NCBI GenBank assembly: GCA_041666325.1 | Contig: JBAYHC010000003.1 | Span: 95,102 to 159,101, forward strand | DNA length: 64,000 bases | Source of the DNA: Patescibacteria group bacterium | GTDB taxonomy: Bacteria > Patescibacteriota > UBA1384 > XYA2-FULL-43-10 > 1-14-0-10-43-13 | Direction of reading: 5' to 3' | Shown: positions 3,153-52,487 of the stretch, in pieces | Layout: every line of letters begins with the position of its first letter | How positions within the stretch are numbered: the first letter of the stretch is position 1 | The notes under the pieces: generated by a model | Told to the model about the DNA's origin: nothing | Database searches by the model: none | The model's input: the letters and a program-made list of their open reading frames with translations, nothing else | Translations under genes and position numbers: made by a program

Positions 3153-5509
3153 TTATAAGACAGCTTTATCGAATTAAGACTGGGATCAAGAAGGCGAAAT
3201 TTCCAATAAACATGGTTGGTTTCATTTGTCTGACGAATAATTCTCAGCTTGGCAGCATCGTTTGGAACGGAATTATTAATTGTACCTATTTGACAAGAGG
3301 CACCAGAAATAAGTGGATTTGTCGCCAAAATATAGTCCCGAACCTCGGTATCTATCCCGGCTACCAAATTAGAGACGGTTAGCTCGACGGTAATGACATC
3401 ATTCGCCTGGAGTGAATACGGGTTGAAGCCAAGGCCTGTCCCCGGCCTATCGTATGGCACTAAAACTTTACTTATAGTCACAGCTGGCTGGCTTAACTTT
3501 TTGATTATTATCCGACCCCCGCCTCCTCCTCCACCAGTATTTTCACCACCGGCAGCGCCATTCGCCTCAATACCAACTGGAGTATGTATGTCAGAAAGAA
3601 TGTAACCATATTGACCACCAGATAGTCCGTTCGAAGTGGCGACTGCATTGGCTTTGTTTGACGGCATTTGGTATTGGCTTGCCTCAAGCCAAATCATGCC
3701 GCCCGATCCGCCGCCAGACCACCCGGGCATATCATCACAGTCCGTTGCAGCACCGAGCCAGCTATCGTGGCAATCCCGTCCATTCACTCTGCCACCACCA
3801 GTACCATTTGCCTGAATCACAGACCCGTCATTCAAGACTATCCTCGCGGCCCGAAAATGGATTCTTCCCCCTCCAGCGCCACCAGAGGTTCTACCGTCAG
3901 CGCCTCCATCACGTCCCACAACCCAAACTCCACCACCACCGGACCCGAAGTGGAATTGATTCGCATCATATGTTGAGTAGCTTGTTGTCGCAGGATAAAT
4001 CTTACCGTTTGTACATGTTGTTGACCCATCGGCGCAACCGTTGGACCCACCGACCCCGCCAAAACCACCGCCACCGGAAATCTGATCCCTAGCAGCTGCA
4101 TATTTTCCTACGCCCCCTCCCGGACCGCAGCCACCATTTCCATTTATGCCACCCGGTCCACCGGAAGCATTGGCAGTAACCTTGCCATTGCTCTCAAGTA
4201 TAAGGTCTGTATCTAGCTCAATATTGATGCCCTGGTTGCCGCTACCGTTATTCCATGACGAACAATCCGTCAAAGCAGAATTAGTCCACTGATAAAGCTC
4301 ACCGTTGTTTCGAATGGTTAAGCTCTTGTATCTGACGGGAGTAGTTCCGTTGGCAACCCAGACGCGCTTGTTGTCAATAATCACATCTTTGCCCACACAC
4401 GAAGGCGGGATCCAGTCATTAGTACTGCTGCTTGTTATGGTACAGAGCTGAGTTACGCTATTAAACTCCAAGCGGATTCTGCCACCGCCACCGCCACCGC
4501 CACGAGCATTGTTATCAACCGTGTTGCCACCCTTGGCCTGAATATTGCTACCATAATTTCTTTCTGTCGAGATTCCGCCATAAGATACTGTGGCCGATTC
4601 CCCATCATTCCCCCCATCTCCACCGCTTGCATTAGGCGATAATCCAGCATTGATTTCTGTTATCAGGGCACTTGCAGTAAGCCAAACAGTTCCGCCTGCG
4701 CCACCACCACCGCTTGCCCGATAATCAGCTGTGCCATCACCACCATTGGCGGTAATTGATGAGGTAGAGTCAATAGCGATTGTACCAGCAGTAACGCGGA
4801 TAATTCCACCGCCAGCTCCACCCCAACCAATACGATTGTTGTTGCGACGACGGGCTGTTCCCCCGCCGGAACCGTGCTGAAACGGAGCGTCAGCAAGTCC
4901 ATACTCGCCGCCGCCTGGATTGCTCCCATCTCCACCTTCACCACCATAACCGCCGCCGCCGCCGGAGGTACCCGACTCGTAGATGCTATACCCCTGCCCA
5001 CCGCCTGGGCCCCAACCATCACACGCCGTCTCGCGATTATGCGCTGCTTCCGCACAGTCTATTTCACCGCCAGGGAAACCCTTGGCATCCGCATTAATCT
5101 TTGCATTATTTTCGAGCTTTAAATCTTGAGTAACCGTAATTTCGATCTTTTTTCCAGAGCCAGACGCTGTTATATTGCCATCATAATTGGTGTCTGTTCT
5201 GCGAACTAGTGGATCATGAACAAGCTTTCCGTTGTTCTTGATTGTTAGGTTCCTAAATGTATGAGGACCCGTAATCGTAACGATGACTCCATCAATAATA
5301 ACATCGTCATTTGAGTAATCGGTAGTGGTACCCATGGTCCTGTTGCCGGCAGGAGTGGTTGAGTCAAAGGTCGTCGCCTTTGTTTGTGTTGGGTTCTTGA
5401 CTACCAGTATTTGAGACAAAAATACTACAACCAAAGCCGAGGCCAAAACCGTCAACAGACGTATCTTGAACCTGAGATCTAGTGCTCGCGAAATTGAGTG
5501 CTTTGACAT
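3131..5509 (-). CDS. large glycine-rich cell-surface protein with beta-helix repeats and a DUF11-like C-terminal domain
   Basis: 792 aa starting at MSKHSIS, preceded by a GAGGGG RBS. It has an N-terminal TM/signal segment and many ITA(N/S)G...GGxGG repeats. The C-terminus resembles a conserved-repeat (DUF11) domain. Antisense frames are open only because of Gly-codon periodicity. Confidence 0.6.
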   Translation of the reverse strand: MSKHSISRALDLRFKIRLLTVLASALVVVFLSQILVVKNPTQTKATTFDSTTPAGNRTMGTTTDYSNDDVIIDGVIVTITGPHTFRNLTIKNNGKLVHDPLVRRTDTNYDGNITASGSGKKIEITVTQDLKLENNAKINADAKGFPGGEIDCAEAAHNRETACDGWGPGGGQGYSIYESGTSGGGGGYGGEGGDGSNPGGGEYGLADAPFQHGSGGGTARRRNNNRIGWGGAGGGIIRVTAGTIAIDSTSSITANGGDGTADYRASGGGGAGGTVWLTASALITEINAGLSPNASGGDGGNDGESATVSYGGISTERNYGSNIQAKGGNTVDNNARGGGGGGGRIRLEFNSVTQLCTITSSSTNDWIPPSCVGKDVIIDNKRVWVANGTTPVRYKSLTIRNNGELYQWTNSALTDCSSWNNGSGNQGINIELDTDLILESNGKVTANASGGPGGINGNGGCGPGGGVGKYAAARDQISGGGGFGGVGGSNGCADGSTTCTNGKIYPATTSYSTYDANQFHFGSGGGGVWVVGRDGGADGRTSGGAGGGRIHFRAARIVLNDGSVIQANGTGGGRVNGRDCHDSWLGAATDCDDMPGWSGGGSGGMIWLEASQYQMPSNKANAVATSNGLSGGQYGYILSDIHTPVGIEANGAAGGENTGGGGGGGRIIIKKLSQPAVTISKVLVPYDRPGTGLGFNPYSLQANDVITVELTVSNLVAGIDTEVRDYILATNPLISGASCQIGTINNSVPNDAAKLRIIRQTNETNHVYWKFRLLDPSLNSIKLSYNCTVTRN

Positions 5510-42656: not shown

Positions 42657-44954
42657 TCACTTCAAGGCAACATCAATCGCCTCATCAGCGTTTTCAATTA
42701 ACATAAAGTCAATCTTCAGCCTGGCCTCTTCTGGCACATCAACAAGATCTTTTTCATTTGCCTTCGGCATAACGACTTTTTCTACTCCGGCACGATATGA
42801 TGCTATAATTTTTTCCTTTATACCTCCTACCGGCAGAACCTTTCCTCTCAACGTTATCTCGCCTGTGAAGGCGATCTCTTTTCTAACTTTTCGCCCCGAG
42901 AGAGTCGAAGCTAGAGCAACAGCAATCGCCACTCCGGCAGAAGACCCATCTTTGGGCACCGAACCGGCCGGAACATGAATGTGCACATCAGAATCTTGAT
43001 AAAATTTTGGATCAAAAGCCAATTTCTTGCTTTGAGACCGAACATAAGTTAGGGCAGCTTTGGCAGACTCCTTCATTATATCCCCAAGCTGGCCAGTAAG
43101 TGTTAGCGCTCTCCTGCCCGGTATCACTGATGACTCTATAAATATTATCTCTCCCCCAACCGGCGTCCAAGCCAAACCAGTTGCTACACCAATCTCGTCC
43201 TTAATCTGCCTGACTGTCACCTCAAATACCTCAGGGCCCAGGTATCTGGCTAGATCTTGTACAGAGATAACTAAGGCAGTGTTGCCGCTCTCCTCTTTTT
43301 CCACAATAGACCGAGCGACCTGGCGAGCGACTTGGGAAATTTTGCGCTCAAGATCGCGGACACCTGCCTCCCGAGTATAGCGAGAAGCTATTCTTTCTAT
43401 GGCTTCATCAGTCAGCAAAAAACCGGTATTTTCCAATCCGGTATCTTTGATTACTCTCGGAAGCAGATACTTTTTAGCGATCTGAAACTTCTCCTCATTC
43501 GTATAGCCAGAAAACTCGATCAGCTCCATCCGGTCTAGCAATGGCGCCGGTATCGTATCGGCAATGTTAGCCGTTGTAATAAAAAACACATCAGAAAGAT
43601 CAAACGGAACATCGAGATAATGATCAGTAAAACTATTGTTCTGTGCGGGATCAAGCACCTCCAGAAGAGCAGAAGCAGGATCACCACGGTAGTCAGCCCC
43701 GACCTTATCAATCTCATCGAGCATAAAAACCGGGTTTTTGGTTCCAGCGCGACGTATGCCCTCGATTATGCGCCCAGGCATAGCACCGACATAAGTTCGG
43801 CGATGACCCCGTATCTCACTCTCGTCTCGTATACCGCCGAGCGACATGCGAGCAAAGCTCCTGCCCAAGGCCCGTGCTATCGATTGACCAACCGAAGTTT
43901 TGCCCGTTCCTGGAGGACCAATGAAACAGAGAATGCTACCGTGGGCATGATTTCCAGTTAGCTTCTGGACAGCCAAGTACTCCAAAATTCTCTGCTTTAC
44001 TTTGTCCAAACCGTAATGATCATGATCAAGAACTTGCTCAGCCTTGTGTATGTCAATTTTGCTTTCGCTCTTCTTGCTCCAAGGTAGATCCGAGAGTAAC
44101 TCAAGGTATGTAGAAATATACGGAGCCTCGGGACTCACTGCTGGCATCCGCCGCAACCGCTCAAGTTCCTTAAGTGCCTGATCCAGAACATCTTGTGACA
44201 TACCGGCATGTTTCAGCTTATCCTCCAATTCGGCATATTCACCCAAACCCTCGGTATCACCTAGCTCCCGTTCAATCGCCTTCAATCTCTCGCGCAAGAT
44301 AAATTCTCTCTGAGCCTTGTTGACCTCATCGCTGACTTTCTTCTGAATCGTCTCCTCTGTTTGAGCAATATTTATCTCTTTAGCCAATTTTTCATTAAGA
44401 AAATCCAATCTCTGCTGAAGGTCTAGTGTTTCAAGAAGGTGAATTTTGTCCTCAAACTCCATCTTCATCGCCGAAGAAATAATGTCACTCATCTTCTCAG
44501 GTGGCAAGCTCTGATCCTGCAACACACTCGCTGTCTCAGCCGAAAGGGTCCCCTCAATCTTCACCAAGCGGTTAAATTGGTGAAAAACGCTCCTGGCCAA
44601 AGCCTCAAGCATTGTACTCTGCGACTGTTTCTCCGGAATTAACTCTAATACCTCAGCCTTCTGGATTATTCCCTCTTTATAAAGGCGAGATATTTTTACC
44701 CGTCGTATCCCCTCAAGTGAGGCTCCCATGATCTGAGGATTGACTGCCCAATACTGGAGTATCCGGCAAATCACACCAATGTCGCTACTGCGATCGCCCC
44801 TGCTAAAATTAAGCACCACCTGGCGATCACTGTTGGCAGCGGTATTGAATGTATCGACAATATCTTGACCCTCGAGGATCATGGGGACGACCGTAGAGGG
44901 AAAAATTACTGTCCCACTCAAAGTAATGGCAGGGTAGATATTTCTATGGAGCAT
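42657..44954 (-). CDS. lon: ATP-dependent Lon protease
   Basis: Lon N domain, AAA+ module (GPPGTGKTS Walker A, DEIDK Walker B) and the S16 catalytic PKDGPSAG-type motif (VPKDGSSAGVAIAVAL). Confidence 0.95.
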   Translation of the reverse strand: MLHRNIYPAITLSGTVIFPSTVVPMILEGQDIVDTFNTAANSDRQVVLNFSRGDRSSDIGVICRILQYWAVNPQIMGASLEGIRRVKISRLYKEGIIQKAEVLELIPEKQSQSTMLEALARSVFHQFNRLVKIEGTLSAETASVLQDQSLPPEKMSDIISSAMKMEFEDKIHLLETLDLQQRLDFLNEKLAKEINIAQTEETIQKKVSDEVNKAQREFILRERLKAIERELGDTEGLGEYAELEDKLKHAGMSQDVLDQALKELERLRRMPAVSPEAPYISTYLELLSDLPWSKKSESKIDIHKAEQVLDHDHYGLDKVKQRILEYLAVQKLTGNHAHGSILCFIGPPGTGKTSVGQSIARALGRSFARMSLGGIRDESEIRGHRRTYVGAMPGRIIEGIRRAGTKNPVFMLDEIDKVGADYRGDPASALLEVLDPAQNNSFTDHYLDVPFDLSDVFFITTANIADTIPAPLLDRMELIEFSGYTNEEKFQIAKKYLLPRVIKDTGLENTGFLLTDEAIERIASRYTREAGVRDLERKISQVARQVARSIVEKEESGNTALVISVQDLARYLGPEVFEVTVRQIKDEIGVATGLAWTPVGGEIIFIESSVIPGRRALTLTGQLGDIMKESAKAALTYVRSQSKKLAFDPKFYQDSDVHIHVPAGSVPKDGSSAGVAIAVALASTLSGRKVRKEIAFTGEITLRGKVLPVGGIKEKIIASYRAGVEKVVMPKANEKDLVDVPEEARLKIDFMLIENADEAIDVALK

Positions 44955-47119: not shown

Positions 47120-47920
47120 TTACATCGGCTTCGCAATGAACATGGTGTAGTACTGACCATGCACGCCTATTCCAACCTCCTGACCAAATGAGGCAAGAAT
47201 ATTAGCACGATGTCCAGCACTATTCATCCACGCTCTAACCAGCCCATCATCACTACCGAAATCACCCATCGCCAGATTGGCGCCAGCATTGGAATATTTG
47301 TAGCCAACACTGTTGAGGAACGACCAGTCTGTCGTTCCGTCTGGAGCGGTATGAGCAAAGTAGTTTTTCTCAGCCATATGCCTAGATTTGGCGCTTGCGG
47401 CCTGATTTAGACCCGTGTTTCCACGAACTTCAGACAGTCCGTTAGTGCGCCTCTCCGCATTGATAAGGCTGATTATATGGTCAACCTGATTGTTTGAGGA
47501 CACAGGAACAGAAGTCGGGACTGATGGCACGACAACAGCTGGAGCGGGAGTATCAACCGGCGCAGCAGGCGCAGCAGCTACTGGCGCAGGTGCCGGGGTT
47601 TCAAACCGCACCACAGGCTTCGACTGAACAGGCTTCACTGTTGCTTTCGAAGCAGGAATGACATACCGATAACGAACCTTCACCGCCTTGCCGTTACGGT
47701 AAACTATTTTCGTCCTCCAATACACCTGATTTGCCAGTACTCTTTTCGCAGATTTCTTCTTCGTTTTCTTAGCAGCAACCACGCTCTTCTTGGTGGACTT
47801 CTTAGAACTGCCGACACTTTTCGTTTGTGCACTTGCACTTTGTGTTGACAATGCAACGATCAAGAAAAGAAGCAGGACATATGAAAAAAGCTTTTTCCAC
47901 AAAGGGAAATTTCCTTTCAT
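47120..47920 (-). CDS. CAP/SCP-domain secreted protein (YkwD-like)
   Basis: Signal peptide, a K/S/A-rich spacer, and a C-terminal CAP domain (HIISLINAERRTNGL...HRANIL...YYTMFIAK). Confidence 0.75.
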   Translation of the reverse strand: MKGNFPLWKKLFSYVLLLFLIVALSTQSASAQTKSVGSSKKSTKKSVVAAKKTKKKSAKRVLANQVYWRTKIVYRNGKAVKVRYRYVIPASKATVKPVQSKPVVRFETPAPAPVAAAPAAPVDTPAPAVVVPSVPTSVPVSSNNQVDHIISLINAERRTNGLSEVRGNTGLNQAASAKSRHMAEKNYFAHTAPDGTTDWSFLNSVGYKYSNAGANLAMGDFGSDDGLVRAWMNSAGHRANILASFGQEVGIGVHGQYYTMFIAKPM

Positions 47921-48279
47921 ACTTTCTCCTTTAAAAAAATATACCTATCTCTTGTTCTTGCCGGCTTGACACACTTTGAGATGGTCATGTGTGATTATAA
48001 CACTCAATTGGAGCAATCAAGCGTTTTGCCCATCCTTCCCCCACTCTTTCAGTTGCAGATTATGTCTTTAGTAAATATCATCTCTAATAGACCATTATCA
48101 GCCTATGAATGCGACTAAAATCAATCTAGAAATGGCAAAATAATTATTTCTTCGCTCTGGTAAAAGCACCTAAAAAAACAAATATTTTTTCTTGTCCGTG
48201 CAATTCTTGCAACAACACACTGGGACCGCAATTCCAAGGACAATCTATTGACTCTTAGAGTCTGAGTGGTACTATCTAG

Positions 48280-48500
48280 TTACGCTTGGCTAGATAAAAC
48301 CGACACGTAGTGCCTGGGATACCAAGGGAAGGCCTGCTGGAGAGCCAAAAGCAGGCGGGTAATCCCTCTGGGTCCAAGGAGTGTCGGGCCTGCCTGAATT
48401 CGGGCGGGTAAAACAAAAAGGAGATTCGCCGCTCTGCACAGGGTGGCATGACGCCAGGTAGTCAAGCGGTTTCGCGGCGGGGGGACGTTGCCCCCGCCTT
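48280..48500 (+). ncRNA. GC-rich structured non-coding region upstream of the reverse transcriptase (candidate RT-associated ncRNA)
   Basis: No ORF of 60 aa or more. Nested hairpins: CCGACAC...GTGTCGG enclosing GGGAAGGCCUGC-(13 nt)-GCAGGCGGGUAAUCCC. Internal ~50-nt diverged direct repeats. Ends in the terminator hairpin GGCGGGGG-GACGTTG-CCCCCGCC plus T-run at 48466-48496, 30 nt before the RT ATG. Confidence 0.35.
48466..48496 (+). terminator. intrinsic terminator between the structured RNA and the RT start
   Basis: 8-bp GC stem GGCGGGGG/CCCCCGCC with a 7-nt loop, followed by TTCTTTTGTG. Confidence 0.55.
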
Positions 48501-48528
48501 CTTTTGTGAAAAGAGGGGGTGAGCGAAA

Positions 48529-49839
48529 ATGAACGGTTTGTCGCGGCGTCTCTTCTGGGGAGCGCGAGAACTTGAAGAACTATTGTGGATGTTTGACTTC
48601 AAGCTATTTCTTAAGCGACACAAGATTACTCTCGAGCGGAATATCGCCGGTATCCTCAAAGACGGTGTCGAGAACCACTACACCATCAGGCCCAAACCGA
48701 AGAAAAGCGGCGGATACCGCCTAACCTGGGAACCGGACCGGACGCTTTGGGCCTATCAGAAAATGATCTTGGAGATCATTTTGTATCGAGTCGCGCCATC
48801 ACCGGTTGCTCATGGCGGAGTACCCGGAAGAAGCATCTCGACGTGTTTGGATTCGATGCTTGACGCCAAATCAGTTTTTCATGTTGATTTGAAAAACGCC
48901 TTTGAGTCTGTCAGCTTCAGTCAAACTCTCGGACTTAGGACCGATCTTCGGTATGAGCCGCGCTCTGCCTGGGTCAGGGGCTTCGATGTTCGCGTTCCCG
49001 TGATGGAGGCGATCATCGCCCTGTGCGAGATAAAACGCATGACTGCGCACGGATGGTATGAGAACGCATTTTTACCGCAAGGCGCACCAACATCACAGCA
49101 CCTCTTTACGCTTGCACTCTATCCAGTGCATCGGCGGCTCGCCAGACTGACCAGGAACAGAACCGTTCAGTATGGAGATGATTTCTTCCTTCTGTCTCCT
49201 GAGCCATCGATCCCACCCAAGGTGCGGCGCGCCTTCGTTCGCACAATCGAACGTCACGGCCGACTTGAGATCAACTCAAGCAAAACCTACTATCTTACAG
49301 ACACCGGCACAGAGAACAATCCAGTGAGAGGACTTGGAGCAAATATCATTCGCGGCACAGCTCGTCTCCGTCCTCGCCATTTGCATCAACTGCGCATGGA
49401 CATGTACTGTGCAATCCAGGCCGGTGATGAAGCAAAAATTGCCGGCACCAGAGGTTTTGTTAGCCAGATCTATCGCGGTCAACCATGGCCGTCGCAGCTT
49501 GCCCTTATCAAGCCCGACGACTGGGACGACAGGGAACTGGGTGCGGCAAGACACTCAAAGCTGTCTCTGAGTGTCAACATCGGTGACATATTCAACTATC
49601 AGATTGTCTCGAAAACACCGCCCCCGGATATTTGCAAACAAATTTATCCACTCGATATCGAACGCCGAAAGAGAACTTTCGAAACAGACGGGGTTGCCCT
49701 AACTGCCGCAGACCAGGATTTTCTGGGACGATTGTCGGAAGGAGATGTTGAGCCAGAAGAACCTGAATTTGATTCTTTTGCCCCGCCTCTTTTTGACGCT
49801 TGGGGCGAACACATCGTTGGCGAGAACGGCTACTACTAG
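48529..49839 (+). CDS. reverse transcriptase, retron-type (stand-alone RT with ~150-aa C-terminal extension)
   Basis: Motif 1-2 YTIRPKPKKSGGYRLTWEP; motif A HVDLKNAFESV; motif B LPQGAPTSQHLF; motif C VQYGDDFFL; thumb xVRGLxxNI. No maturase/X or endonuclease domain. GAGGGGG RBS. Confidence 0.85.
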   Translation: MNGLSRRLFWGARELEELLWMFDFKLFLKRHKITLERNIAGILKDGVENHYTIRPKPKKSGGYRLTWEPDRTLWAYQKMILEIILYRVAPSPVAHGGVPGRSISTCLDSMLDAKSVFHVDLKNAFESVSFSQTLGLRTDLRYEPRSAWVRGFDVRVPVMEAIIALCEIKRMTAHGWYENAFLPQGAPTSQHLFTLALYPVHRRLARLTRNRTVQYGDDFFLLSPEPSIPPKVRRAFVRTIERHGRLEINSSKTYYLTDTGTENNPVRGLGANIIRGTARLRPRHLHQLRMDMYCAIQAGDEAKIAGTRGFVSQIYRGQPWPSQLALIKPDDWDDRELGAARHSKLSLSVNIGDIFNYQIVSKTPPPDICKQIYPLDIERRKRTFETDGVALTAADQDFLGRLSEGDVEPEEPEFDSFAPPLFDAWGEHIVGENGYY

Positions 49840-49959: not shown

Positions 49960-51558
49960 TTGAACATGGAACCAGAGGTAAATCTCTCATTATCAGACAG
50001 AACATTTAGATTTCTTGAGCAATATTCGGCTTATGCCAATGCCCCCAGACGGGACATTCGCGGTGTCAGCGACAAGACTTTTCAATCTGCCCTGATCTAC
50101 GAAAAATTCAGAACGGCGCTCGAGTACCAAGAAGAGCATCTGATTTTTAAAAATGCTATTTCTCGCATTGTTAGACGAAAGTATGTGCTAGCGCCCTCCA
50201 TTTCTGCAACGAACTTATTCAATGACTTAGTCAGTGAACTCTCTTGGTCTAATTACCTCAACCCCGAAACGCTCCAAACAGAAGAACGCCACCGCATTAT
50301 CGCCATCCTTGAGCGCTACCTGATACTACTCCAAGAAATGAAGTCTGCACGGGCCAATAAGATGGAAGTACAAAAAATCGTCATCGAGTGGCTCGCCTGC
50401 GAAATCAATGAGGTTTTTACCCCTCTCCACGAAAACGATCTGCTCATCGACTATGCTTACGAGGCACTCAAAGACAATCTAAAGACTGAGGGCACAGCGA
50501 TATCACCAGAGGAAAACGAACTTCAGCTCAAAATTGCAATCCATACCCTGGTACTGAAACCCGATATTGCGTTGCTCCAATACTGGACAATCAAACGCCT
50601 TTATTCAAATTGGCAAACAATGACTGTGGAGGAAACAAAGAGTTTTGCACGCAGCTTTGACCCGTATTTTAACAAAGTCGAACAAGCAATCAACCACCCC
50701 CTGAAAACAAGATATTACCAGTACATCAAGCGTAACATCGCACCATTTATTCTCTTGCGCAGCCTTTTCATTGCAAAATCGCCCACTGCCACCCAATTCA
50801 AGGCTAATCCCTCCTCCCTCCGCAGCTCTCTCATGTCAGTCTACGACTCTCTCATCGAGGAGGGCCGCAAGAAGGTCTGGCGCGGAACCATCCGGGCTCT
50901 CATCTTCATCTGCATGACGAAACTCTCTCTGGCATTGATTATAGAAGCCCCAATCGATCGATACCTGGCCGGTGAAGTTGATTATCTATCGCTTACAATC
51001 AACCTGACCCTACCAATCCTACTCATGCTTTTCTCCGGCACCTTCGTCAAATCGCCCCCAGCAAAAAACAGACTTGTCGTATCCGAGGCAATCTCGAACC
51101 TAATGATAAAAGACAAGATCAGCGACAAACCATTCCATCTAACCAAGTCTCGCGAAAGCTCGTCAGAAAATGCATTTAACACTGTCTACTCTTTGTTTAC
51201 GGTCGTCATACTGGTTGGAGTAATTTGGTTTCTGCGCTATCTTCATTTTAACCTGGTGAGCATTGTATTGTTTTTCCTCTTTGTCTCAGCAGTATCCTTC
51301 TTCTCATTCCGCATCCGCAACATTGCACTGGAGCTAGCCATGAAACGATCCCGCGACGACGCACTAACCTCCACGCTAGAATTCATCTTTTTGCCCTTTA
51401 TCAGAATCGGAAAAGCCATCTCCGAAAGGCTTGCCAGAGCTAATCCGTTCATCCTTGCTCTCGACTTTTTGATTGAGGCCCCGCTTAAATCTATCATAAA
51501 AATTATGAACTCGTGGTGGCGTTTCCTCAGTTCAAAAAAAGAAGAGCTCGAGGTCTAA
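49960..51558 (+). CDS. membrane protein, 532 aa (soluble N-terminal ~300 aa plus 4 C-terminal TM helices); candidate RT-system partner
   Basis: No recognisable domain. AT-rich compared with the RT. TM helices at roughly 300-330, 345-365, 400-425 and 430-450. Confidence 0.55.
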   Translation: MNMEPEVNLSLSDRTFRFLEQYSAYANAPRRDIRGVSDKTFQSALIYEKFRTALEYQEEHLIFKNAISRIVRRKYVLAPSISATNLFNDLVSELSWSNYLNPETLQTEERHRIIAILERYLILLQEMKSARANKMEVQKIVIEWLACEINEVFTPLHENDLLIDYAYEALKDNLKTEGTAISPEENELQLKIAIHTLVLKPDIALLQYWTIKRLYSNWQTMTVEETKSFARSFDPYFNKVEQAINHPLKTRYYQYIKRNIAPFILLRSLFIAKSPTATQFKANPSSLRSSLMSVYDSLIEEGRKKVWRGTIRALIFICMTKLSLALIIEAPIDRYLAGEVDYLSLTINLTLPILLMLFSGTFVKSPPAKNRLVVSEAISNLMIKDKISDKPFHLTKSRESSSENAFNTVYSLFTVVILVGVIWFLRYLHFNLVSIVLFFLFVSAVSFFSFRIRNIALELAMKRSRDDALTSTLEFIFLPFIRIGKAISERLARANPFILALDFLIEAPLKSIIKIMNSWWRFLSSKKEELEV

Positions 51559-51953: not shown

Positions 51954-52487
51954 ATGAATTCAGACAAAGGCAGGGATCTTCTGGTACAGGCCCGCCAATC
52001 ATTCTTGCGAGGACAGATTACACCAGAATCGGCGAACAGAATCATCGACGATTTAATTCTGGTCAACGCCCATTCTCCGCAGAAAGAAATCGTGTTGTGG
52101 CTCGATTCTATCGGCGGCGACAGTGAATCAGCCTTCAAGATTTGCAACACGATAAAAGCCATATCATCGCCAGTGACCGCCAAGGTTATTGGCCAAGCTA
52201 ACTCGTCTGCTTTTCTTGTTCTGCAGTATTGCAATAAACGAGAAGCCGGGCAACTTGCCACTCTTATGCTTCACACTATTTCTCGGAAAAATGTTGAACT
52301 TAAGGATATTCGCGAGAGAGGGCTGAGGGCGCTCGAAGAAACAGAGCGACTACAAGAAATTTATGAACAAATTATCTCCGCAAGATCCGGTCAAGCGAAG
52401 GAAGAAGTTGCTCGCTTATGTATGGAAGGCAGGATAATGTCTGCCACCGAAGCTCTCTCGCTTGGCTTCTTGGATGAGATCTACTAA
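51954..52487 (+). CDS. ClpP-family (S14) serine peptidase-like protein
   Basis: IVLWLDSIGGDSESAFKICNTIKAISSPVTAKVIGQANSSAFLVLQYC matches the ClpP core (I.L.INSPGG...G.A.S.G..L). 177 aa, shorter than canonical ClpP. GGGGGA RBS. Confidence 0.55.
   Translation: MNSDKGRDLLVQARQSFLRGQITPESANRIIDDLILVNAHSPQKEIVLWLDSIGGDSESAFKICNTIKAISSPVTAKVIGQANSSAFLVLQYCNKREAGQLATLMLHTISRKNVELKDIRERGLRALEETERLQEIYEQIISARSGQAKEEVARLCMEGRIMSATEALSLGFLDEIY

Follow-up and report, generated by a model that had tools for sequence, protein, structure and literature searches.

The question raised by this locus is what kind of element occupies the G+C-rich, highly structured region directly upstream of a reverse transcriptase (RT) gene in a member of the Patescibacteria (CPR): an RNA partner of the RT, a leader that controls its expression, or a fortuitous fold. 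A sequence-only reading of the window (the entire 64-kb stretch of DNA analysed here) listed several stems, two diverged direct repeats and a terminator-like hairpin in this region. Comparison with homologous loci reveals a real RNA gene of about 225 nt (approximately 48282-48506, + strand), which is very likely the cognate RNA partner of the downstream RT. That it is a retron-type primer/template RNA of a divergent, effector-less, CPR-associated clade appears probable, albeit with considerably less assurance. The main interest of the case is that a retron priming architecture is kept across a whole clade without an effector and, in most members, together with a YxDN active site.

Layout of the RNA gene

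The + strand of the segment 48270-48510 folds with a free energy of -110.2 kcal/mol (z = -4.65, with none of 200 shuffled sequences folding as well), and the - strand of the same segment gives z = -2.27; the core from a1 to a2, taken by itself, reaches z = -5.6 in the window. The elements are listed in Table 1. Transcription is predicted to start at about 48282. The terminal arms a1 and a2 are complementary over 10 nt (90% complementarity, the one exception being a G.U wobble) and close the RNA in the way that complementary ends close a retron ncRNA. Inside this helix, P1 is closed by the stem CCGACAC/GUGUCGG (48300-06/48381-87) and contains cross-pairing between CCUGGG and CCAAGG as well as an inner hairpin, GCCUGC/GCAGGC (48332-37/48351-56). 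The exact sequence of P2 occurs once in the 64-kb window. P3 includes a short hairpin (48428-35/48440-47 or, alternatively, 48444-47/48453-56) and the conserved GA-N6-RG block at 48450-58. P4 is also detected by a terminator scan, and its stem ends 30 nt before the ATG of the RT gene (48529).

Table 1. Features of the RNA gene, the RT gene and the adjacent genes in the window
Feature	Position	Strand	Description
CAP/YkwD-family gene	47120-47920	-	upstream neighbour, divergent from the RT gene
Promoter-like site	48248-48275	+	TTGACT (48248-53), 16-nt spacer, extended -10 TG-n-TACTAT (48267-75); promoter scan
a1	48283-48292	+	CGCUUGGCUA; 5' arm of the terminal long-range helix
Candidate priming (branch) G	48293	+	directly 3' of a1, in the invariant UAG
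P1 domain	48300-48387	+	MFE folds
P2 hairpin	48389-48408	+	8 bp, CCUGCCUG-AAUU-CGGGCGGG; invariant U.G wobble; abuts P1
P3 stretch, candidate msd-like template	48409-48458	+	about 50 nt; A-rich linker, short hairpin, GA-N6-RG
a2	48459-48468	+	UAGUCAAGCG; 3' arm of the terminal helix; conserved G (48458) just before it
P4 hairpin and U-run	48476-48506	+	8-bp G+C stem (48476-83/48491-98), U-run TTCTTTTG (48499-506)
Shine-Dalgarno-like site	48513-48522	+	GAGGGGGUGA, 6 nt before the RT start; read from the sequence
RT ORF	48529-49839	+	436 aa; Pfam RVT_1
Membrane protein gene	49966-51558		530 aa; downstream of the RT gene; without a Pfam family
Short ClpP-like protein	51954-52487		177 aa; downstream of the RT gene

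Several further pairings can be drawn in this region. The hairpin CUAUCUAG..CUAGAUA at 48273-48296 shares nucleotides with the -10 box and with the 3' portion of a1 and could rival the a1/a2 helix only if transcription started upstream of the predicted start. Nucleotides 48346-48359, in the inner hairpin of P1, are complementary at 13 of 14 positions to 48493-48506, i.e., the 3' arm of P4 and the U-run; considered as an antiterminator, this pairing was rejected because it is conserved neither in L001 nor in L002 (the loci of the two closest RT relatives, see below). The hexamer GGCGGG occurs three times, at 48354, 48403 and 48476.

Most of the elements named in the sequence-only reading exist, but at coordinates about 10 nt higher than those it assigned. 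The 7-bp stem that it placed at 48290 and 48371 is the closing stem of P1; the two-part hairpin GGGA-AG-GCCTGC, 13 nt, GCAGGC-GGGTAA-TCCC lies at 48326-48366, not at 48318-55; and the 8-bp G+C stem with a T-run, assigned to 48466-48496, is P4. A further proposed stem, GCCGC (48428) with GCGGC (48474), has to be discarded: it crosses the a1/a2 helix, overlaps the terminator stem, is broken in L001 (GCCTC) without compensation, and is absent from both the RNAfold and the RNAalifold structures. The small hairpin TGGC-ATGAC-GCCA that it was thought to enclose (48444-56) does exist and is picked by RNAalifold, but its stem is invariant between the window and L001 and so gains no support from this comparison. 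The 10-bp helix 48283-92/48459-68 and the promoter-like site at 48248-75 were absent from that list.

The two direct repeats of about 50 nt (48312-66 and 48367-414) are genuine, if modest: aligned globally, they score 5, compared with -8.5 +/- 3.8 for shuffled sequences, and 1 of 2000 shuffles reaches this score. The blocks common to both copies are CTGGG-T-CCAAGG and GGCGGGTAA. What is repeated is a P2-like hairpin, copied into the variable P1 domain; only the window and L001 show the repeat clearly, and the wider RNA family in the ten loci compared lacks it.

Conservation and covariation in ten loci

The window RT is rare. A word-indexed protein search retrieves only two close relatives, P0002 (64% identity) and P0003 (44%), and an HMMER search over 1.84 billion representatives yields 3 proteins at E <= 1e-30, followed by a tail of RTs of 300-340 aa with about 30-35% identity. 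The ten loci compared here are the window and the DNA around P0002, P0003 and seven more distant RTs; in the nine further loci, the RTs are 28-64% identical to the window RT, and the RNA layout is common to all. The RT-RNA clade comprises about 30 representative clusters. The 90% cluster of one RT relative contains a Candidatus Berkelbacteria protein, so that the RT family is apparently CPR-associated.

Some details of these loci bear on gene calling and local context. The recorded P0002 starts at an internal Met (L001 1587) of an ORF (L001 1528-2951) in which a homologous start, MNGLPPRLFWGARELEEL, is found at 1528 and matches that of the window RT. In L002 (positions 3792-3794), and also in L003, an in-frame TAA splits the RT of the second-closest relative into 287 and 152 aa; gene calls for both ORFs exist in L002 and L003, three contigs carry a record of the 287-aa product, and the alignment of the 152-aa ORF with the RT covers residues 290-327. 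This could be a pseudogene, a split gene or a case of read-through. Other RNAs in the same loci are a SAM-I/IV riboswitch upstream of a SAM synthetase gene (L002 1970-2097, - strand), a weak T-box-like match ahead of an aminoacyl-tRNA synthetase gene (L002 6510-6676, + strand) and a tRNA gene about 250 nt upstream of a1 (L045 1998-2071).

In all ten loci, the RT gene is preceded by an intergenic region of about 280-730 nt in which the elements occur in the order a1-UA|G, P1, P2, P3, G|UA-a2, P4, Shine-Dalgarno site, RT start; ahead of them, a TGnTAnnnT box is located 4-10 nt upstream of a1 in nine loci. The unconstrained MFE fold contains the a1/a2 helix in every locus, with core z values from -3.4 to -5.6. 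The trinucleotide UAG directly follows a1 throughout, the fourth base being A, U or C, and the junction ...CUA|G / G|UAG... is likewise common to all ten loci, the base before UA being C in nine of them and U in L044. P1 is the variable part (32-178 nt, with a closing stem that differs in sequence between loci). P2 follows 0-3 nt after P1 and conforms to the consensus CYUGNCNG-RRYU-CNGNCGRG, with an invariant U.G wobble; P3 is constant in length, at 43-60 nt, with a conserved GA..RG block ahead of a2; and 54-93 nt separate a2 from the RT start.

The covariation in this family is best seen in alignment A4, which was trimmed to the a1, P2 and a2 blocks and holds nine distinct sequences. In this alignment, 96.5% of the cells pair, and 12 of the 16 base pairs show changes on both sides (6 of 8 in a1/a2 and 6 of 8 in P2), a conservative count given that the L041 row is offset by one column in P2. 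None of 500 shuffles matches the pairing, the covariation score or the number of two-sided changes, and 3' partners slid out of register leave at most 3 pairs with two-sided changes. RNAalifold run on the window, L001 and L002 recovers a1/a2, the P1 closing stem (with two compensatory changes), P2 and P4. The sequence-only reading offered a discrete ncRNA as one of two possibilities, and this one agrees with the folds and the covariation: a structured RNA tied to the RT, not an unstructured 5' UTR, is conserved upstream of homologous RTs in all ten loci. The a1/a2-type inverted repeats and the branch-point G, for which that reading advised a search, are present as well, the G as a candidate by position and context, and are conserved or covary in all ten.

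Neither the RNA of the window nor those of the nine relatives match any family in Rfam 15. A scan of public collections with GGGCCTGNNNGAATTCNNNCGGGTA returned 17 matches in genome contigs, 17 in metagenome contigs and none in viral contigs; these 34 matches were rejected as family members because they lack the flanking ncRNA elements and lie mostly in G+C-rich, coding-like sequence of unrelated bacteria. The P2 family consensus has a single match in viral contigs, within an ORF.

The covariation across ten loci and the fixed position relative to the RT gene in each of them make it extremely improbable that the region is a G+C-rich fold formed by chance, or that it merely holds an unrelated small RNA or a small ORF on one strand or the other. 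ORFs of 33-65 aa do overlap the region, mostly on the - strand, but they lose frame or length in L001, and the - strand folds less well.

The layout itself lends some substance to a different interpretation. A promoter followed by a helix-closed multi-stem junction, a terminator hairpin with a U-run and a Shine-Dalgarno site is typical of cis-regulatory leaders, which counts against the retron-type reading, and the earlier reading had suggested attenuation control of the RT. Under this interpretation, the region would be a riboswitch-like leader or a protein-binding attenuator that only controls RT expression, with the a1/a2 junction as the sensor and P4 as the expression platform; the partial complementarity of the 3' arm of P4 to both the Shine-Dalgarno region and 48346-59 would fit such a switch. 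In the window, L001 and L002, where a U-run directly follows the P4 stem, the hairpin looks like an intrinsic terminator. A strong hairpin is found at the same place in all ten loci, with unrelated sequences (the tail segment from a2 to the start codon has an MFE of -19 to -36 kcal/mol and z = -1.5 to -6.2), but the seven more distant ones have the U-run displaced or lack it. Since the hairpin is kept in these distant loci and the U-run is not, the conserved element is the hairpin and not necessarily termination. Furthermore, no conserved antiterminator is found, the best alternative partner of the P4 3' arm being different in the window, L001 and L002, so that the pairing expected of a riboswitch, conserved and mutually exclusive with the terminator, is absent from these three loci. 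Attenuation of RT expression is thus not borne out. Given, in addition, that the invariant UAG/GUAG junction matches the retron priming site, that the RNA travels only with the lineage of the window RT and that it matches no Rfam family, a purely regulatory leader seems distinctly unlikely; a leader role would in any case be compatible with an additional template role.

The reverse transcriptase and its gene neighbourhood

Both sequence and fold place the window RT in the retron lineage, with low scores. Among the 25 best PADLOC matches listed, 24 are retron RT models (at the top RT_outgroup, RT_other, RT_XIII and II-A, with E values of about 1e-24), and the retron-model scores are low and below the NCBIfam cut-offs. 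The solved structures in the PDB that match the window RT by sequence are those of retron RTs only. A Foldseek search with the AlphaFold2 model (mean pLDDT 76; the C-terminal 100 aa, residues 336-436, are predicted to be disordered) puts retron RTs in all of the first 15 ranks, followed by DRT9 at rank 16 and DRT2 at rank 40; group II intron and DGR RTs also rank behind these 15 structures.

Two motifs, NAXXH and VTG, define retron RTs (Mestre et al. 2020, PMC7736814). In the window RT, region X reads STCLDSM (TCLDSM) where retrons have NAXXH, and region Y reads VRG-LG in place of VTG. Among the 16 aligned RT relatives, at least 9 keep NAxxH, and the family consensus of region Y, RLxGVN, retains the G alone.

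The catalytic motif of the window RT is YGDD (residues 215-218), and the other invariant catalytic residues, D120 and D217, are kept. YxDD is also present in P0002, P0003 and P0020, whereas 12 of the 16 relatives in the alignment and 33 of the 151 best matches among representatives have YxDN instead. We know of no described retron-type RT with YxDN. This substitution casts doubt on polymerase activity in much of the RT family and, because the RNA is conserved in the YxDN members too, raises the possibility that the RNA accompanies an RT-fold protein that has lost polymerase activity, the complex acting by binding and not through a cDNA. However, a GDN motif is compatible with activity in the RNA polymerases of negative-strand RNA viruses, and DN is thus not necessarily a sign of an inactive enzyme. 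Considering also the intact active site of the window RT, a non-polymerising partner is a quite improbable explanation.

In the gene neighbourhood, no effector is conserved. An all-against-all comparison of ORFs in the ten loci, extending at most a few kb to either side of the RT gene, finds nothing in common except the RT, and hence no linked effector gene or domain of the kind that retrons carry. The 530-aa membrane protein encoded downstream of the RT gene was considered as an effector and rejected: it has more than 100 full-length homologue clusters in Patescibacteria, and on three other contigs its homologues adjoin genes for a methyltransferase of the Methyltransf_5 family and a response regulator in the absence of an RT. 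It is a conserved CPR gene of unknown function that is unrelated to the RT. The 177-aa ClpP-like protein scores far under the NCBIfam ClpP cut-offs and shows a weak match to phage head-maturation protease models; a canonical Lon protease is encoded elsewhere in the window (42657-44954).

A solitary RT with an upstream ncRNA and without an effector is also the arrangement of DRT2 and DRT9, which suggests that the RNA could be a template or scaffold used in a non-retron way, i.e., for rolling-circle synthesis (DRT2), for homopolymer or protein-primed synthesis (DRT9), or with DGR-like priming 3' of the template, possibly involving P4. Several other features are compatible with such a use. The enclosed segment has a UAG at each end, P4 is conserved without an obvious function, and residues 184-190 of the window RT read QGAPTSQ, with the SQ that is typical of DGR RTs. 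The same residues are found in P0002, and most other aligned members have SP. The two UAGs, however, follow from a palindromic helix end with a G on each side, as in Ec86; no DRT model is among the 25 best PADLOC matches listed, all but one of which are retron RTs; the DRT9, DGR and DRT2 structures rank below 15 retron RTs; and the family as a whole does not share the internal repeat. Within the 64-kb window, 48240-48528 has no second copy, complete or partial, and a DGR was therefore rejected, there being no VR-like copy. Taken together, these observations make a non-retron template unlikely.

Proposed mechanism and comparison with known systems

From the conserved junction, the nature of the RT and the layout of the RNA, we infer the site of priming (G48293), the extent of the cDNA, termination at P4 and a possible biological role as follows. 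Transcription would begin at about 48282, from the extended -10 promoter. The 5'-terminal a1 would pair with a2, some 165 nt downstream, and close a junction with P1, P2 and P3; the resulting helix would serve as the primer-template duplex, with the RT probably docked on P2, the candidate binding hairpin. From the 2'-OH of G48293, the RT may then begin to copy the bases immediately 5' of a2 into cDNA, with approximately 48457 as the first template base, and copying would proceed through P3. Should a1/a2 form the primer-template duplex, copying could begin only on the side next to a2, i.e., in P3; it is this geometry that points to P3 as the putative template. P4 with its U-run is expected to end most transcripts, giving a discrete RNA of about 225 nt in excess over the RT mRNA, in which case read-through transcripts would be the source of the RT; in distant relatives, P4 may only insulate or stabilise the 3' end of the RNA.

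The folding properties of P3 differ from those of a typical msd. Hairpins in P3, the a2-proximal stretch, are only 4-13 bp long, so that there would be no long msd hairpin if copying stays within P3. The hypothetical P3 cDNAs, folded as DNA, reach -2.8 to -9.6 kcal/mol (z = -0.1 to -1.7), no better than shuffled sequences. The G.U content, taken as a sign of the part that folds as DNA, does not separate P1 from P3 in six loci.

Because there is no effector gene, the role may rest with the RNA-protein complex or with the cDNA itself. A solitary RT-ncRNA lineage, mostly with YxDN, that is spread across CPR/Patescibacteria among housekeeping genes and uses retron-style self-priming with no protein effector, its output being the cDNA or the RNA-protein complex, can be put forward only tentatively, as a possibility that we consider plausible but not likely. 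Searches of the literature on retrons or retron-like RNAs in CPR lineages and on YADN found nothing relevant, and a retron-like, effector-less CPR branch with a hairpin between the RNA and the RT is apparently undescribed. Retrons are understood as three-part defence systems akin to toxin-antitoxin systems. Here, a whole clade in reduced CPR genomes retains an RT, together with an RNA that covaries and has the priming junction of retrons, but no effector, which raises the question of what the role of a bare RT-RNA pair is. Should self-priming without an effector prove true, the lineage would be related to retrons but follow another biological logic, namely defence without a toxin or a role outside defence. 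As an RNA family outside Rfam 15, it is open to testing, with defined ends, candidates for the priming G and for a protein-binding hairpin, and a natural contrast between YxDD and YxDN. Interest also attaches to compact RT/RNA pairs that prime themselves, as tools for in-cell DNA production.

With respect to known systems, the locus resembles DRT2 and DRT9, whose RTs belong to the UG/Abi lineage, in that a single RT gene is accompanied by a structured upstream ncRNA and no separate effector gene. It differs from them in the RT lineage, in the retron-type a1-UA|G junction and in the lack of a conserved template repeat. Accordingly, the earlier impression that the direct repeats recall the repeat-containing template RNAs of DRT systems does not hold, the repeat being clear in two loci only and the RT being nearest to those of retrons.

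DGRs are reported to account for about 80% of the RTs in CPR genomes (PMC8632793). The likeness to DGRs consists in a template RNA upstream of the RT, priming from a 2'-OH in both and the SQ motif of the window RT; the differences are that the window contains no TR/VR pair and that the RT fold is closer to retron RTs.

Orphan retrons such as those of the Retron-Eco5/Ec107 branch (PMC7736814) similarly combine an RT and an ncRNA without a linked effector, but there the effector was lost inside typed retron clades, whereas here an entire divergent clade, sampled at ten loci, is without one.

Compared with retrons in general, the differences are considerable. Classical retrons carry an effector gene, and none is conserved in these ten loci; P3 has no long stable msd hairpin, in RNA or in cDNA form; P1, on the 5' side, is variable and far bigger than typical msr stem-loops; NAXXH and VTG are degenerate in the window RT, and most relatives have a YxDN catalytic motif; and the hosts are CPR bacteria. 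In Retron-Eco1 (Ec86, type II-A), moreover, 6 nt separate a2 from the ATG, compared with the 54-93 nt with a strong hairpin (followed by a U-run in the window) found here. The contiguous msr-msd-RT cassette of retrons, with no terminator inside, is thus interrupted, and the sequence-only reading was right to regard a hairpin with a U-run at this place as unlike classical retrons.

The similarities to Ec86 concern the priming architecture. In retron RNAs, msr hairpins and a long msd hairpin lie between two complementary ends, a1 and a2 (Mestre et al. 2020, PMC7736814), and the priming G immediately follows the 5' arm of the terminal stem, usually in TAGC (Simon et al. 2019, PMC6868368); G48293 corresponds to it in both position and context. 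The Ec86 junction, read from the E. coli genome, is TGCGCACCCTTA|G ... CTGAC-G|TAAGGGTGCGCA, 6 nt, ATG. As in Ec86, the ncRNA lies upstream of the RT gene on the same strand; a terminal a1/a2 helix of 8-12 bp ends in the a1-UA|G and G|UA-a2 junction, position 48293 being equivalent to the Ec86 branch G; hairpins follow this G, and a single-stranded stretch precedes a2; and the RT is nearest to retron RTs by both sequence and fold.
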